From Candidatus Omnitrophota bacterium (lineage in GTDB: Bacteria; Omnitrophota; Gorgyraeia; Gygaellales; Profunditerraquicolaceae): a stretch of 64,000 nt of DNA. How positions within the stretch are numbered: the stretch's first letter is position 1; each line of letters begins with the position of its first letter. The DNA lies in the NCBI GenBank assembly GCA_041650835.1, contig JBAZKL010000001.1, positions 299,931 through 363,930 of the forward strand, written 5' to 3'. The notes below the pieces were generated by a model. The model made no database searches. It had not been told where the DNA came from and saw only the letters and a program-made list of their open reading frames with translations. A program made the position numbers and the translations under genes. This document shows positions 24,207 through 30,426 of the stretch, piece after piece.

Positions 24207-25754
24207 CTATTTGCCTTTGTAACGCAGCGCCAGCATCGTGATATCATCCGATTGCGGCGCCCCGTCGGTGAAAACCCGTATTTCTTCCCGGATCTTCCCG
24301 ATAATATCTTTTATCCCCTCATCCTTATATCTGGTCAGATGCTCTTTAAGCCTGGCCTCAGAGAACATCTGTTGAGTCCGGTTCATCGCCTCGGTAACGC
24401 CGTCAGTATAAAGGAAGATCATGCCTCCGGGCTTAAGCGTAAGCTCCCGCTGTTCGCATTTGCTGTTTTCCATTACTCCGACCACAAACCCGGAGAGCAC
24501 ACTGACGTAATCAAAACAACCCCGGTAATCGCAAACGAGCGGCGGGTTATGCCCGGCATTGCAAAATTTCAATTCCCCCGTATCAATGTCGAGAATAACG
24601 CAGAATACCGTAACGAACTGGCAGGTCTGATTATCAGGAGAGATTATATTATTCACGCGGTTCAATATCTCATTAGTAGGCAAACCGCGCTTGGCCTCAT
24701 TTTTTATCAGTGTCTTGGTAATAGCCATAAAGAGCGCCGCGGGGACACCCTTGCCGGAGACATCCCCGATCACAAAACACAGCCTCCTGTCATCGACAAA
24801 AAAGAAATCATAAAAATCACCGCCTACTTCCTTAGCCGGGTCCATCATGGCGAAGATCTCGAACTCTTTCCTCTCGGGGAAAACGCTCGGCAGCATGCTG
24901 GCCTGGATCTCCTGGGCAATGCGCAATTCGCTTTCAATACGTTCCCTGGCCTCTGTCTCCGTCTTTAAATTCTCAATAAAACGCTTGATGCTCATCTGGA
25001 TCAATTCAATAGCCAGCGCGGGGTCCTGGCCGAAAAGTTTTATGACTTCATCCCTGCCCATGGTATATGTCTCAACATCCTCCTCGCACACCGCGGAGGC
25101 GATCCTTTTCTTAAAAGGGGAAAAGATCCCCATTTCCCCGATCACTTCACCGTCCTTAATGATCTTGTTGAGCTCCACTAAGCGTATAGCGCCCTTTTTT
25201 ATATAGAACATCCTGTCGGCCTTATCCTGCGCCTTGAAAATAACCTCTCCTTTTTTAAAGAGCTCTTGTTTCATAAAAGCGACCGGCCAGCGGAAACAAG
25301 AAACGCACTCCTCAACAACCGTTTCTTTTTTAACCGGCTCACAGCATTTTATACCCTTGGTTTTCACAAGCGTCAGGATATTACGCTCTTTGTCCCTCTT
25401 ATATCTGACCTCATCCATGATCTTACGTATCATAAATATCCCCAAGCCGCCGACCTTGCGTTCTTCGATGGGCGCTAAGATATCAGGTTCAGGCAGCGAT
25501 AGCGGGTCAAAGGGGATACCGGAATCAATGATCTCTATTTCCATGCAAGCCTCTTTGTTACTGATCACTATTTCCAGATCACCGCTGCCGGCCGGATAGG
25601 CGTATTTAATGACATTGACTAAAGCCTCTTCAGATGCCAGCTGAATTTTATTGATATGCTCGGGGCCAAAGCCCTGGCGGGAAGACGCTTCCCTGATAAA
25701 GGAAAACATCTTATCCAGATTTTCCAGTTTTGCCTGAATGGTCAAACGTTCCAT
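24207..25754 (-). CDS. Fusion protein: RsbW/SpoIIAB-like serine kinase (HATPase_c_2) - cyclic-nucleotide-binding domain - SpoIIE/PP2C phosphatase
   Basis: N-terminus LASEEALVNVIKYAY...IEIIDSGIPFDP (anti-sigma kinase). Middle FKKGEVIFKAQDKADRMFYIKKGAIRL...GEMGIF (cNMP). C-terminus GGDFYDFFFVDDRRLCFVIGDVSGKGVPAALFM...YTDGVTEA (PP2C). Confidence 0.75.
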   Translation of the reverse strand: MERLTIQAKLENLDKMFSFIREASSRQGFGPEHINKIQLASEEALVNVIKYAYPAGSGDLEIVISNKEACMEIEIIDSGIPFDPLSLPEPDILAPIEERKVGGLGIFMIRKIMDEVRYKRDKERNILTLVKTKGIKCCEPVKKETVVEECVSCFRWPVAFMKQELFKKGEVIFKAQDKADRMFYIKKGAIRLVELNKIIKDGEVIGEMGIFSPFKKRIASAVCEEDVETYTMGRDEVIKLFGQDPALAIELIQMSIKRFIENLKTETEARERIESELRIAQEIQASMLPSVFPERKEFEIFAMMDPAKEVGGDFYDFFFVDDRRLCFVIGDVSGKGVPAALFMAITKTLIKNEAKRGLPTNEILNRVNNIISPDNQTCQFVTVFCVILDIDTGELKFCNAGHNPPLVCDYRGCFDYVSVLSGFVVGVMENSKCEQRELTLKPGGMIFLYTDGVTEAMNRTQQMFSEARLKEHLTRYKDEGIKDIIGKIREEIRVFTDGAPQSDDITMLALRYKGK

Positions 25755-25760
25755 ATTGAT

Positions 25761-26081
25761 CTATTCGCTATAGGTATCCTGAAGGGTCATAAAATTAGCC
25801 AAACCGCTCATCTTGATCACGCTCAAGATCGCCTCTTGCGCGCCGATGAGAAAAATATGCGCGTCTACGCCGATCTTCTGCTTGGCGAAGATCATCACCC
25901 GCAGGCCGGCGCTGGAGATATATTCCAAATCTTTAGCTAAAAACACGAGTTTTGAGATCTTCTGTCCGCCGAATTTCTTTAATTCCCCCTGCAGGCCTTC
26001 GGCATTCGTAGCATCTAAACGCCCTGCCAATTCAACCTTAACCACATCCTCTTTAAGAGATACTGAATATTTTGAGTCCAT
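25761..26081 (-). CDS. STAS-domain anti-sigma-factor antagonist (SpoIIAA/RsbV-like)
   Basis: 106 aa. VKVELAGRLDATNAEGLQ...DLEYISSAGLRVMI carries the phosphorylatable Ser in the DxxYISSaGl motif. Confidence 0.8.
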   Translation of the reverse strand: MDSKYSVSLKEDVVKVELAGRLDATNAEGLQGELKKFGGQKISKLVFLAKDLEYISSAGLRVMIFAKQKIGVDAHIFLIGAQEAILSVIKMSGLANFMTLQDTYSE

Positions 26082-26112
26082 TGATCGTGTCTCCTTTCGA
26101 CAAAGCGTATGT

Positions 26113-28245: not shown

Positions 28246-28586
28246 CAGGCCTCCTTTCCCAGGGCCTTTAAAGCCGCGGGAATACTGTCAAAAGTCCTAA
28301 AGAAATTACTAAACCCCGTCATCTCCATGACATCCTTGATCTCATCGCACAGGCCGCTTAAAAGCAGGACTCCTCCCTGCGTAGAAAGCTGTTTTGCAGC
28401 CATTAAGAGAAGCCGCAATCCCGCGCTGGAAATATAACCGCAGTCTTTAAGATCGATCAACATCGACATTTTCGAAGTAAGGATCGGAAGTATCTTTTCC
28501 TGCGCGTCATTAACCGTATTGCCGTCAAGGCTGCCGGATATTTTAATGATCGTTGCTCCCTCCTGAGTAGTAGTCTTTATTTCCAT
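28245..28586 (-). CDS. STAS-domain anti-sigma-factor antagonist (second copy)
   Basis: Start placed at MEIKTT. IKISGSLDGNTVNDAQE...DLKDCGYISSAGLRLLL has the same phospho-Ser motif. Stop overlaps glgX start. Confidence 0.75.
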   Translation of the reverse strand: MEIKTTTQEGATIIKISGSLDGNTVNDAQEKILPILTSKMSMLIDLKDCGYISSAGLRLLLMAAKQLSTQGGVLLLSGLCDEIKDVMEMTGFSNFFRTFDSIPAALKALGKEA

Positions 28587-28605
28587 AGTATCACCCTCCT
28601 CATAG

Positions 28606-30426
28606 CTATTGCACAGGAACAAGCCTTACCTTGATTTTCGGCCGGTAATTCAAGTTCGGTAATGAGACAGTTAATTTCTCAGCGTCAAAGTTTTTCCAGG
28701 GGTTATTATCCACCCAGACTTCTTGTATACGCACGCTTCCCGGAGGAAGGATATCCGGCTGGACCCTCAGGACATCGCCCGGGAACCCATGAGGCAAAGG
28801 CTTAAAATAAAGTTCAAGCGGCTGTTTGGTATACAAAAGGTTTTCATATACCTGCGACAAATAGGCTAACTCCACTGAATGATACGCGCTCATAGAATGG
28901 CTGCCCTTTAAACGCTCAGTCCCCAGCAAGAAAGGCAATCCGTTATTCAGGACATTAAAATATACCGCCCCGTCATCATGATCCAGGTAAAAAGCATTGT
29001 AAAAAGCCGCGGACTCGCGCGCAAGCCGCAGGTATTCCTTATCCTTAAGGATCCCGTAAAGGATCGCGTACGCCAGGATCGCCTGCTCCTGCTGCCACCA
29101 TGCCTTACGGTCATGCCAGACAAAACGATGGCATTCTTCACCCGGCTGTAATGCCCTCTCCATAACGTCATACCAGCCGCTGCGTTGAAGGTCCATTCCG
29201 AATTTCGGCATGATCTCGGCGATCTTTTTGGCGAACTTCACGTATTTTTCGTCCGGCGCGAGGCTGTTAATACGCATTAAATTCCAGGCGATCTTAAGAT
29301 TATGGCCTATTACCGCCCTGTTCTGCTGCCATCCCCAGGTCTGATCATGGCTCCAGTCCTCGGAAAAGCGCTCATTAACAAAAGGGCTGTTTTCATAGTC
29401 AGGGAAATATTTAGTGATACAGTCGGCAGTATAAACCAGGAAATCCTTATATTTATCTTCTCCGGTAGCCAGCCATAAATTGATCAGGTAAGCCGGGGCA
29501 TGGTCGCCTACTGAATTCCAGTTCTTGCAGGCGCGGTTCCTTCCCAAAGACTCGCTTCGGGGATTAAGGCTGATCGGATCGATATGGGAGAAGTAACCTT
29601 GCTTTTCTTTATCGAGAAAAAAACGGTCGAACAGGTCAATGGTCATCTTGATGTCCTTCATTATCGCGGGATCCCCCGTAATGCGGTATGTCTGCGTAGG
29701 GCCTGCCAGGGCATAGATCTGCTCATACATGGGGATCGCGTCATAATCGTCACCGAACTCTGAAGCGAAGATCTTATGCTCGCGCTCATGCTTAACGTCA
29801 ATGCCATGATACCAATAGACGATATTTTCTTCCGTATCGTAAAAACGCATATGATCGCGCAAATACTGGGTCCCTTTTTCAGCTGCCTCTAAGAAACGGT
29901 CCTCACCGGTGAGTAAAAACGCGGAAGCCATGCCGTAAACCATACGGGAGATAGTATCGGTCTCCTGACGGTGGTCTTTCTTGCGTTCCCCGGTCAAAGA
30001 CAGCATAGTCCGGTACTTACTGTAATCTATAGCCTCAGGCCCGCCAAACTGGGCCTTGATATAGAAATCAGCGATACTTCTTGCCTGGTTAACCCACCAG
30101 TTGGGCTCTTCAAAACGGTATTTCTCCGCGCTATCTCCCGAAAAAATAAGCACTTTCGCTTCAAAGGTATGGCCGTTCTTTTCCGGATAAAATATACCGA
30201 GGGTAAAAAGATACTGTCCCTGTACCAGCAATGATTCGATCTTACCGGTATAATCGCAATACCCCTCTTCCAGGTTACGGGGCCCGCGCGCATAGGTAGT
30301 GGCAGTAAGTTTGACCGAAAACTCCCGCCCATCAGAAGTTTTCATGCCGAATATTCTTTTTTCACGGTCATAACTTGTTACATAGCCTGCGATTGTATCG
30401 GAAAACTCAAAATTCATCCTTTGCAC
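28606..30426 (-). CDS. AGE-superfamily (N-acylglucosamine 2-epimerase/cellobiose 2-epimerase-like, six-hairpin) protein with about 150-aa N-terminal extension
   Basis: GTG start 30426 preceded by AGGAGG-N7. Central/C-terminal region has the alpha/alpha-barrel repeat pattern (W..Q....W.L, HDxxAxYxN) of AGE family. Assignment by eye only. Confidence 0.45.
   Translation of the reverse strand: MQRMNFEFSDTIAGYVTSYDREKRIFGMKTSDGREFSVKLTATTYARGPRNLEEGYCDYTGKIESLLVQGQYLFTLGIFYPEKNGHTFEAKVLIFSGDSAEKYRFEEPNWWVNQARSIADFYIKAQFGGPEAIDYSKYRTMLSLTGERKKDHRQETDTISRMVYGMASAFLLTGEDRFLEAAEKGTQYLRDHMRFYDTEENIVYWYHGIDVKHEREHKIFASEFGDDYDAIPMYEQIYALAGPTQTYRITGDPAIMKDIKMTIDLFDRFFLDKEKQGYFSHIDPISLNPRSESLGRNRACKNWNSVGDHAPAYLINLWLATGEDKYKDFLVYTADCITKYFPDYENSPFVNERFSEDWSHDQTWGWQQNRAVIGHNLKIAWNLMRINSLAPDEKYVKFAKKIAEIMPKFGMDLQRSGWYDVMERALQPGEECHRFVWHDRKAWWQQEQAILAYAILYGILKDKEYLRLARESAAFYNAFYLDHDDGAVYFNVLNNGLPFLLGTERLKGSHSMSAYHSVELAYLSQVYENLLYTKQPLELYFKPLPHGFPGDVLRVQPDILPPGSVRIQEVWVDNNPWKNFDAEKLTVSLPNLNYRPKIKVRLVPVQ

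Follow-up and report, generated by a model that had tools for sequence, protein, structure and literature searches.

An icfG-type cassette in a Candidatus Omnitrophota bacterium, with STAS proteins as candidate regulators of an AGE-like enzyme and GlgX

The icfG cluster of Synechocystis PCC 6803 (slr1855-slr1861) encodes the AGE protein Slr1855, the STAS protein Slr1856, GlgX2 (Slr1857), a second STAS protein (Slr1859), the PP2C phosphatase IcfG and the kinase Slr1861 (PMC8670252, PMC12329169). It has been described as a set of two antagonists (slr1856 and slr1859), a phosphatase (icfG, slr1860), an isoamylase (slr1857) and a kinase (slr1861) (PMC12329169). Here we analyse a related locus of five consecutive minus-strand genes, located at 24207-30426 of a 64,000-nucleotide stretch of Candidatus Omnitrophota DNA (assembly GCA_041650835.1, contig JBAZKL010000001.1, positions 299,931 to 363,930). 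The whole stretch is hereafter called the window, and positions refer to it unless a locus number (L001 and the like) is given. An initial annotation of this DNA had considered such an arrangement not to have been described; the Synechocystis cluster, which has the same gene order, contradicts this (PMC8670252, PMC12329169). The window locus is a member of the icfG-type cassettes, with a new regulator architecture and in a new phylum.

The early work on the icfG cluster (Beuf 1994, Shi 1999, Gonzalez 2001) is cited in PMC12329169 and PMC8670252. As related in later papers, Slr1861 phosphorylates both Slr1856 and Slr1859 in vitro (Shi et al. 1999, Gonzalez et al. 2001, via PMC12329169 and PMC11619594). 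In the summary of earlier work given by PMC11619594, Slr1859 is a poor substrate of Slr1861, and IcfG dephosphorylates Slr1856 and not Slr1859. Loss of slr1859 or icfG is recounted to cause poorer growth on low inorganic carbon and glucose (earlier work via PMC12329169, PMC8670252 and PMC11619594). GlgX2 has no debranching activity in vitro, and its knock-out is without a phenotype. In work from 2025, Slr1861 was shown to act as an anti-sigma factor on SigC and to serve as kinase for Ssr1600, a third STAS protein that lies outside the cassette; a sigma output thus exists in at least one lineage.

The window locus and the icfG cluster are alike in gene content and order and in their two STAS paralogues with a conserved phospho-Ser, and the cyanobacterial loci examined also have a DJ-1-family gene adjacent to the cassette. 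The PP2C and the kinase are separate proteins in Synechocystis, whereas in the window they form one chain of 515 amino acids, with a cyclic-nucleotide-binding (cNMP) domain between them; no such domain has been reported for IcfG or Slr1861. The cupin, DJ-1, thiamine pyrophosphate (TPP)-dependent enzyme and VOC genes downstream of the window cassette are absent from the cyanobacterial version. Since the window host is non-photosynthetic, unlike Synechocystis, the inorganic-carbon and SigC context does not apply to it.

SypE of Vibrio fischeri, a fused kinase/PP2C, both adds phosphate to and removes it from SypA, a STAS protein with a target other than a sigma factor (PMC4517449, PMC8256260). 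Like the window regulator, SypE is a single chain that starts with an RsbW-like kinase and ends with a PP2C, with a regulatory domain in the middle. Its single-domain STAS substrate is encoded in an operon of carbohydrate-related enzymes, and in the window a STAS gene likewise lies 6 nucleotides upstream of the regulator gene. Both systems would have the phosphorylation state of a STAS protein as output, without a sigma factor, which is a proposal on the side of the window. The centre of SypE is a REC domain, in contrast to the cNMP-binding domain of the window protein, and SypE acts on one STAS substrate among exopolysaccharide synthesis enzymes, whereas the window has two STAS proteins and cytoplasmic alpha-glucan and AGE enzymes.

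The RsbV-RsbW-RsbU and SpoIIAA-SpoIIAB-SpoIIE modules of Bacillus share with the window a STAS antagonist carrying the conserved Ser, a GHKL Ser kinase and a PP2C, all with their motifs present. They differ in that the window has no sigma gene nearby, its kinase and phosphatase are fused, and its STAS genes are interleaved with metabolic enzymes. In Pseudomonas aeruginosa, the STAS protein HsbA reportedly acts on HsbD. A study of that organism links HsbD, a diguanylate cyclase, to the HptB cascade that contains HsbA (PMC5085249). In Anabaena, a STAS protein has been reported to regulate an exopolysaccharide enzyme directly (HenR/All4160; bioRxiv 10.64898/2026.04.08.717354). These two cases resemble our proposal in that the STAS protein under phospho-control has an enzyme, and not an anti-sigma factor, as its target. 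They have genetic and two-hybrid support, and the targets proposed for the window are of another class, an AGE-like isomerase/epimerase and an isoamylase.

The cassette and its conservation across phyla

The five genes, assigned from the list of open reading frames (ORFs) with Pfam and NCBIfam models, and the three domains of the regulator are as follows.

28606-30426, minus strand: AGE-superfamily protein, 606 amino acids (PF07221)
28245-28586, minus strand: STAS-2, 113 amino acids from the ATG at 28586 (PF01740/TIGR00377), of the Slr1856 type by position
26113-28245, minus strand: GlgX/isoamylase-type GH13 enzyme, 710 amino acids (TIGR02100), of the Slr1857/GlgX2 type
25761-26081, minus strand: STAS-1, 106 amino acids (PF01740/TIGR00377), of the Slr1859 type by position
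24207-25754, minus strand: bifunctional kinase/cNMP/PP2C fusion regulator, 515 amino acids (Pfam)
25362-25739, minus strand: RsbW-like Ser kinase domain of the regulator, HATPase_c_2, residues 6-131 (Pfam, 94.7 bits)
25026-25259, minus strand: cNMP_binding domain of the regulator, PF00027, residues 166-243 (Pfam, 50.6 bits)
24219-24794, minus strand: SpoIIE/PP2C domain of the regulator, residues 321-512 (Pfam, 171 bits)

The listed ORF for STAS-2 spans 28245-28622 and opens with a TTG at 28622; the ATG at 28586, located 19 nucleotides past the AGE stop and behind the ribosome-binding site AGGAGGG, is the likelier start. The stop codon of STAS-2 (TGA) shares bases with the ATG of glgX at 28245 (TGATG), and the two genes are probably translationally coupled through this overlap. 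The initial annotation had the overlap reversed, with the stop of glgX over the start of STAS-2. It had correctly given the close packing of the five minus-strand genes, their domains where it stated them, the gaps of 31 nucleotides between GlgX and STAS-1 and of 6 nucleotides between STAS-1 and the regulator, and the intact phospho-Ser motifs of both STAS proteins. Its five-gene operon holds for the five genes as placed, but the tight co-directional array continues below 24207 with genes for DJ-1, cupin, a second DJ-1, a 73-residue ORF, the TPP-dependent enzyme, VOC, DUF1622 and Lcl_C proteins.

Several sequence hallmarks of partner switching are present, namely single-domain STAS proteins with a conserved Ser, the boxes of a GHKL Ser kinase and the metal-site motifs of a PP2C. 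Both STAS proteins passed TIGR00377 (64.9 and 81.5 bits; cutoff 53.45) as well as PF01740, and their phospho-site Ser lies in YISSAGLR, as S54 in STAS-2 and S57 in STAS-1. In the regulator, the N, G1 and G2 boxes of the kinase (EEALVNVIKY, DSGIPF and GGLG) and four metal-site motifs of the PP2C (GGDFYD, GDVSGKG, YTDGV and DDIT) are intact. Its kinase domain matches the RsbW and SpoIIAB models, the phosphate-binding cassette of its cNMP domain is GEMGIFSPFKKRIAS, and Pfam gave no match to a REC domain in this protein.

A genome scan with the AGE-like protein yielded more than 587 relatives, of which the best 80 loci were analysed; among protein clusters, AGE-like members number more than 4,700. 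These come from Omnitrophota, Desantisbacteria, Ignavibacteriota, Bacteroidota (Bacteroides, Phocaeicola and Prevotella), several Bacillota lineages, Spirochaetota, Planctomycetota, Mcinerneyibacteriota, Riflebacteria, Cyanobacteriota, Chloroflexota, Kiritimatiellae, Myxococcota, Acidobacteriota, Competibacteraceae and Desulfuromonadaceae. Sixty-one loci were informative, having at least 6.5 kb of sequence after AGE, and the window proteins were searched against all of the locus ORFs. The exact order AGE-STAS-GlgX-STAS was found in 50 of the 61, representing at least 16 phyla. The initial annotation had proposed such a comparison of gene order, and its outcome is that the adjacency of STAS and glgX genes is not unique to this genome. 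Chance adjacency of the genes was rejected because their order is conserved across phyla, being identical in dozens of unrelated genomes. Thirteen cyanobacterial loci have AGE-STAS-GlgX-STAS, and identity of the window proteins to the cyanobacterial ones is 68% for AGE, 72% for GlgX and 38-39% for STAS; orthology to the Synechocystis proteins was inferred through these 13 loci, as the Synechocystis locus lies outside the 80. In the open-access literature, we found no prior account of a cross-phylum cassette, or of an AGE::STAS fusion, beyond the work on Synechocystis.

The two STAS proteins fall into position-specific classes. The STAS-2 class accounted for 67 of the 70 STAS proteins encoded after AGE, and all 60 encoded after GlgX belonged to the STAS-1 class. 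Every one of the 130 free-standing STAS proteins of the cassettes keeps the second Ser of [SA]SAGLR. A dedicated kinase is present in about 50 of the 61 informative loci, usually together with a PP2C, and the arrangement of these two is variable, with separate genes in most phyla other than Omnitrophota. In 11 loci, nothing but KIN-PP2C follows the second STAS (the number rises if further genes may trail), and PP2C-KIN takes this place in 7. The two are fused with a cNMP domain in 5 loci, all labelled Omnitrophota, and split as kinase and cNMP-PP2C in 3; in Bacteroides the PP2C gene is upstream of AGE. In Oscillibacter, Lachnospiraceae and Eubacteriales, with the order AGE-GlgX-STAS-DJ1-cupin-DJ1, no kinase or PP2C was detected within 10 kb (phmmer with the window domains, E<1e-3). 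These kinase-less Firmicutes cassettes retain STAS-1 beside GlgX and AGE.

In the comparison with other phyla, the enzymes remain 65-70% (AGE) and 62-72% (GlgX) identical to the window proteins, and the regulators 33-49% (STAS), 28-44% (kinase) and 32-48% (PP2C); the full ranges for the enzymes are 65-81% and 62-83%. With the regulators diverged to 28-49%, there has been ample time for rearrangement. All-against-all clustering of the 4,832 ORFs from the 80 loci gave as recurrent families AGE (79 loci), GlgX (77), STAS (77), DJ-1 (58), PP2C (52), kinase (50), TPP (34), a second DJ-1 (30), VOC (21), the 73-residue ORF (19), cupin (18) and Lcl_C (12). CMD, GMC oxidoreductase and ParA-like proteins were minor families.

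One contig, L027 (PWMT01000082.1, 8.5 kb), is binned as "Methanobacteriaceae archaeon" and carries a full AGE-STAS-GlgX-STAS-KIN-PP2C cassette whose AGE protein is 68% identical to that of the window. The contig is probably mis-binned; otherwise it would reflect transfer into an archaeon.

AGE::STAS fusions, the two enzymes and the output of the switch

In Nostoc sp. CHAB 5824 (L080) and in a metagenome-assembled genome (MAG) of Heliobacteriaceae (L066), AGE is fused in frame to a STAS domain, and both fused domains score as STAS-1 type. Of the 120 protein clusters nearest to the Nostoc fusion, 118 are fusions too, from many cyanobacterial genera and at 67-97% identity. These clusters are 709-757 amino acids long, and both PF07221 and PF01740 are recorded in nearly all of them. 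The fusions are unlikely to be artefacts of assembly or annotation, because they make up more than 100 clusters, with finished genomes included. Most of the fusion clusters have Ser or Thr at the phospho-site; it is absent in L066 (ISKMSAR), and several clusters have ISGD or ISRE. In an AlphaFold2 model of a natural fusion (48-sequence alignment; pTM 0.82), no flexible linker is seen, and the junction has a pLDDT of 87-93. The fusions point to the AGE-like enzyme, and not to GlgX, as the partner of the STAS protein.

One cyanobacterial locus (L083, 6842-19911) encodes in turn GlgX, AGE::STAS, a REC-FAD oxidoreductase, a beta-carbonic anhydrase, a bestrophin and a 498-residue cNMP_binding-HATPase_c protein, and further on SGL, DUF1816 and the GH77 amylomaltase MalQ. 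Alpha-glucan enzymes and a cyclic-nucleotide-binding ATPase come together here once more; this ATPase and the carbonic anhydrase, both near the fused form, are intriguing given the link of icfG to inorganic carbon.

The AGE-like protein of the window matches PF07221 with 61 bits (gathering score 23.4). It is not equivalent to the characterised AGE or cellobiose 2-epimerase, scoring 21.9 bits on NF052547 (cutoff 600) and 18.4 on NF041848 (cutoff 800). By sequence it has no close solved relative in the PDB (best E=1.4e-4), and its relatives carry only generic names in the databases; the closest of them, at 90% identity, are from Candidatus Omnitrophota MAGs. Its AlphaFold2 model (pLDDT 81, pTM 0.88) is an (alpha/alpha)6 barrel with extra beta domains at the N-terminus (about residues 1-100) and at the C-terminus (about 535-606). 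In Foldseek, the barrel comes closest to the 2-epimerases of cellobiose, glucose and GlcNAc, to mannose isomerase and to YihS; target TM-scores range from 0.63 to 0.78, and 3wkf, 8h1l, 5x32, 2gz6 and 7ag4 match at probability 1.0. We take the catalytic residues of Anabaena AGE to be H239, E308 and H372. H239 pairs with H375 of the window protein, which is invariant in 39 homologues. E308 aligns one residue off the invariant E447, and the third His is unaligned; H510 and H516 are invariant. By these comparisons, the AGE-like protein is a distinct family lacking a characterised close relative.

The GlgX protein exceeds the cutoff of TIGR02100 (716.2 bits; cutoff 640.9), and Pfam assigns to it CBM48, catalytic and isoamylase C domains. 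GH13 regions I-IV are kept (DVVFNH, GFRFD, EAWD and FITAHD). Its nearest solved relative is the plant chloroplast isoamylase ISA1 (639 bits), followed by archaeal TreX (557) and E. coli GlgX (437). The initial annotation had named glycogen mobilisation or sugar interconversion as the process under control. The first of these is doubtful in view of the inactivity of GlgX2 in Synechocystis and the lack of a phenotype of its knock-out, and as a label glycogen mobilisation may be too narrow.

We hold that there is about an even chance that the locus is a widely transferred icfG-type cassette in which the phosphorylation state of the STAS proteins is the output and acts on the AGE/GlgX pair. That the STAS proteins, STAS-1 in particular, would act on the co-encoded enzymes is suggested because kinase-less cassettes keep STAS-1, the interleaving with the enzymes is fixed, STAS-2 appears to be coupled to glgX, GlgX2 is inactive alone, and gene fusions join STAS to AGE. 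Direct control by STAS proteins, as the initial annotation had it, gains support from the fusions and the kinase-less cassettes as far as an enzyme target is concerned; GlgX is not the partner that the fusions indicate.

By analogy with the REC domain of SypE, cyclic nucleotide binding to the central domain may shift the regulator between kinase and phosphatase output. That output would set the phosphorylation of S54 in STAS-2 and S57 in STAS-1, as the intact motifs and the in vitro behaviour of the Synechocystis homologues suggest. Comparative genomics further suggests that STAS-2 is the preferred substrate of kinase and phosphatase and may compete for the kinase. On the same grounds, STAS-1 would dock on the AGE-like enzyme and act on the AGE/GlgX pair, so that a pathway fed by alpha-glucan is switched post-translationally. 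A sigma output through the kinase may coexist with this, yet would not be what keeps the cassette together. More tentatively, and somewhat short of an even chance, we propose that the cassette is an ancient mobile phospho-switch centred on the enzymes and spread over at least 16 phyla. STAS-1 would be a detachable regulatory subunit of the AGE-like enzyme, itself a partner of the ISA1-like isoamylase, with cNMP gating in the window, and the link to SigC a secondary, lineage-specific recruitment of the kinase.

Several points weigh against this proposal. The only cassette kinase that has been studied, Slr1861, binds SigC and the non-cassette STAS protein Ssr1600. The 80 loci, as the best matches of the scan (64-81% identity), are a biased sample. 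Divergent kinases could have escaped the search by which cassettes were called kinase-less. The high identity of AGE and GlgX could stem from recent horizontal transfer of the block, which would inflate the synteny. The model of the fusion, lacking predicted aligned error, speaks to the junction and not to an interface between AGE and STAS.

A classical partner switch, which we consider rather unlikely, would make the kinase an anti-sigma factor for a distant sigma factor and the STAS proteins ordinary antagonists. The enzymes would be co-transcribed members of the regulon, free of contact with the STAS proteins, in the manner of the autoregulated sigB operon of B. subtilis. The binding of SigC by Slr1861, which works with the STAS protein Ssr1600, fits this explanation, as do the matches of the window kinase domain to the RsbW and SpoIIAB models. 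In one further locus (L081), moreover, a paralogue of the fusion regulator with 50% identity, next to a STAS gene, has an ECF sigma gene at a distance of about 1.3 kb. However, the cassette itself has no sigma gene, no sigma-factor family appeared among the recurrent neighbours in the clustering of 80 loci, and none came up when most window ORFs were scanned with Pfam. In this the initial annotation was right, since neither the cassette nor its recurrent neighbours include a sigma or anti-sigma gene. A classical switch also leaves unexplained why STAS and enzyme genes stay interleaved in a fixed way while kinase and PP2C are shuffled, why cassettes without a kinase retain STAS, and why AGE::STAS fusions are abundant. 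SigC, being a cyanobacterial group-2 sigma factor, can furthermore not serve as target in most of the phyla with the cassette.

STAS domains can bind nucleotides or lipids. It is improbable, in our judgement, that the STAS proteins of the cassette serve an AGE/GlgX complex as structural parts or ligand carriers, with phosphorylation secondary or serving only assembly or turnover, which would be no switch of the partner-switching kind. The AGE::STAS fusions, some of which lack Ser or Thr at the phospho-site (ISKMSAR in L066, and the ISGD and ISRE clusters), the kinase-less cassettes and the behaviour of Slr1859, on which the kinase works poorly and IcfG not at all, would agree with such a role. 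Set against them are the Ser shared by all 130 free-standing STAS proteins, the dedicated kinase of some 50 in 61 loci, usually with a PP2C, and the phosphorylation of both Synechocystis STAS proteins by Slr1861. That the adjacency is meaningless, the genes having hitch-hiked as a unit on a recently mobile island, draws on the 62-83% identity of AGE and GlgX across phyla and on the unrelated flanks of the cassette, but it is very improbable, given that the interleaving of STAS and enzyme genes persists among regulators of about 30-40% identity that were reordered many times, and that independent gene fusions join STAS to AGE.

Candidate inputs and neighbouring genes

The fusion of kinase, cNMP and PP2C domains is found in many protein clusters at 48-90% identity, and those named by organism are all labelled Omnitrophota; the closest relatives of the window protein, at 90%, are from Candidatus Omnitrophota MAGs. 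L003, L006 and L019 have separate kinase and cNMP-PP2C genes. The fusion is not exclusive to the AGE/GlgX cassette. In L081 (7649-11401), a paralogue of about 50% identity directly follows a lone STAS gene, neither GlgX nor AGE is encoded nearby, and genes for a PrsW protease and the ECF sigma factor lie within about 1.3 kb. As a group of about 50% identity thus sits in another context, the fusion is, judged by gene context, a lineage-specific design that is reused in more than one circuit.

Genes elsewhere in the window that may provide input, together with the large ORFs, are listed below.

5678-7918, minus strand: CHASE2 sensor with class III adenylate/guanylate cyclase, about 16 kb from the fusion regulator
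42026-42640: ankyrin protein, beside the dCache-HAMP-PP2C gene
42656-44566, minus strand: membrane dCache-HAMP-PP2C phosphatase (Pfam), a paralogue of the PP2C domain of the regulator
44563-45558: SBP gene, beside the dCache-HAMP-PP2C gene
48595-55275, minus strand: giant ORF of 2226 amino acids

The CHASE2-cyclase is a possible source of the cyclic nucleotide that the regulator would sense. Orthologues of the SBP, dCache-HAMP-PP2C and ankyrin genes lie immediately upstream of AGE in L001 (6127-9747); in L002 and L019, a few kb come between them and AGE, and in L017 the ankyrin gene alone is upstream of AGE. In the window, about 11.6 kb separates this block from AGE, containing an ShlB-type transporter (40185-41894), a giant minus-strand ORF of 2613 amino acids (32228-40069) and two PEP-CTERM proteins, and is probably an inserted two-partner-secretion-like block. 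The dCache-HAMP-PP2C protein may tentatively be regarded as a second input phosphatase.

Two elements precede the AGE gene.

30614-30641, minus strand: best sigma-70-like promoter for the operon, TTGTAA, 16 nucleotides, TGcTATAAT (10/12 matches)
30477-30514, minus strand: hairpin followed by ten T residues, downstream of the promoter and ahead of AGE, a candidate leader terminator or attenuator

The promoter is the sole extended -10 site of the region, and a similar one aligns in 4 of the 7 Omnitrophota loci compared (L001, L002, L003 and L017). The leader between the promoter-like site and the AGE start is about 100 nucleotides long and ends in the hairpin and T-run, and a hairpin with a T-run is located at the equivalent spot upstream of AGE in four other Omnitrophota loci (L001-L004). 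Compensatory changes are present in 3 of the 9 pairs of the hairpin, and the z-score of the fold is weak (-1.6). Rfam has no family for the leader and gave no meaningful match anywhere in 20000-33000. This leader could act by attenuation, resemble a riboswitch or give rise to a small RNA.

Below the cassette, the array on this strand runs on with the following genes.

23625-24188, minus strand: DJ-1/PfpI protein (Pfam)
23232-23564, minus strand: cupin (Pfam)
22421-23197, minus strand: DJ-1-like protein (Pfam)
22071-22292, minus strand: ORF of 73 amino acids starting MPAII, without a Pfam match, recurring in 19 loci
20403-22055, minus strand: ALS-like TPP-dependent enzyme, below every NCBIfam cutoff
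20005-20403, minus strand: VOC/glyoxalase-fold protein
within 17642-22292, minus strand: DUF1622 protein and four-repeat Lcl_C protein
17003-17596, same strand: third DJ-1 protein
15579-17006, same strand: MFS transporter
12853-15563, same strand: two adjacent FGE-sulfatase-domain proteins

The DJ1-cupin-DJ1 trio is found behind the regulator in loci of Omnitrophota, Planctomycetes, Halanaerobia and Firmicutes, and orthologues of the TPP-dependent enzyme (E 0 to 1e-190) adjoin the cassette in Omnitrophota, Spirochaetota, Firmicutes, Bacteroides and Riflebacteria. In Selenomonadales, the genes run AGE-STAS-KIN-DJ1::DJ1 and GlgX lies a few kb off, and the two DJ-1 proteins (DJ1a and DJ1b) are fused into one of about 480 amino acids (L020 5305-6747; L021, L022 12567-14012), which suggests that they form a heterodimer. 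GMC oxidoreductase joins the cassette in some lineages. The N-terminal Pro of the MPAII ORF recalls tautomerase. The two DJ-1 proteins, the cupin, the TPP-dependent and VOC enzymes and, where present, the GMC oxidoreductase suggest, as a speculation, a pathway with reactive carbonyl sugar intermediates.

Links of the icfG cluster with the regulation of carbon and glucose use in Synechocystis go back about 30 years. What is new here is the conservation of the interleaving far beyond cyanobacteria, the AGE::STAS-1 fusions in more than 100 clusters, the kinase-less cassettes and the fused cNMP regulator, which would bring a cyclic-nucleotide input to this class of switch. If the proposal is correct, direct control of metabolic enzymes by partner-switching components would be widespread. 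It would also hint at an unrecognised sugar pathway in gut Bacteroides, rumen Firmicutes, glycogen-accumulating Competibacteraceae and candidate phyla.

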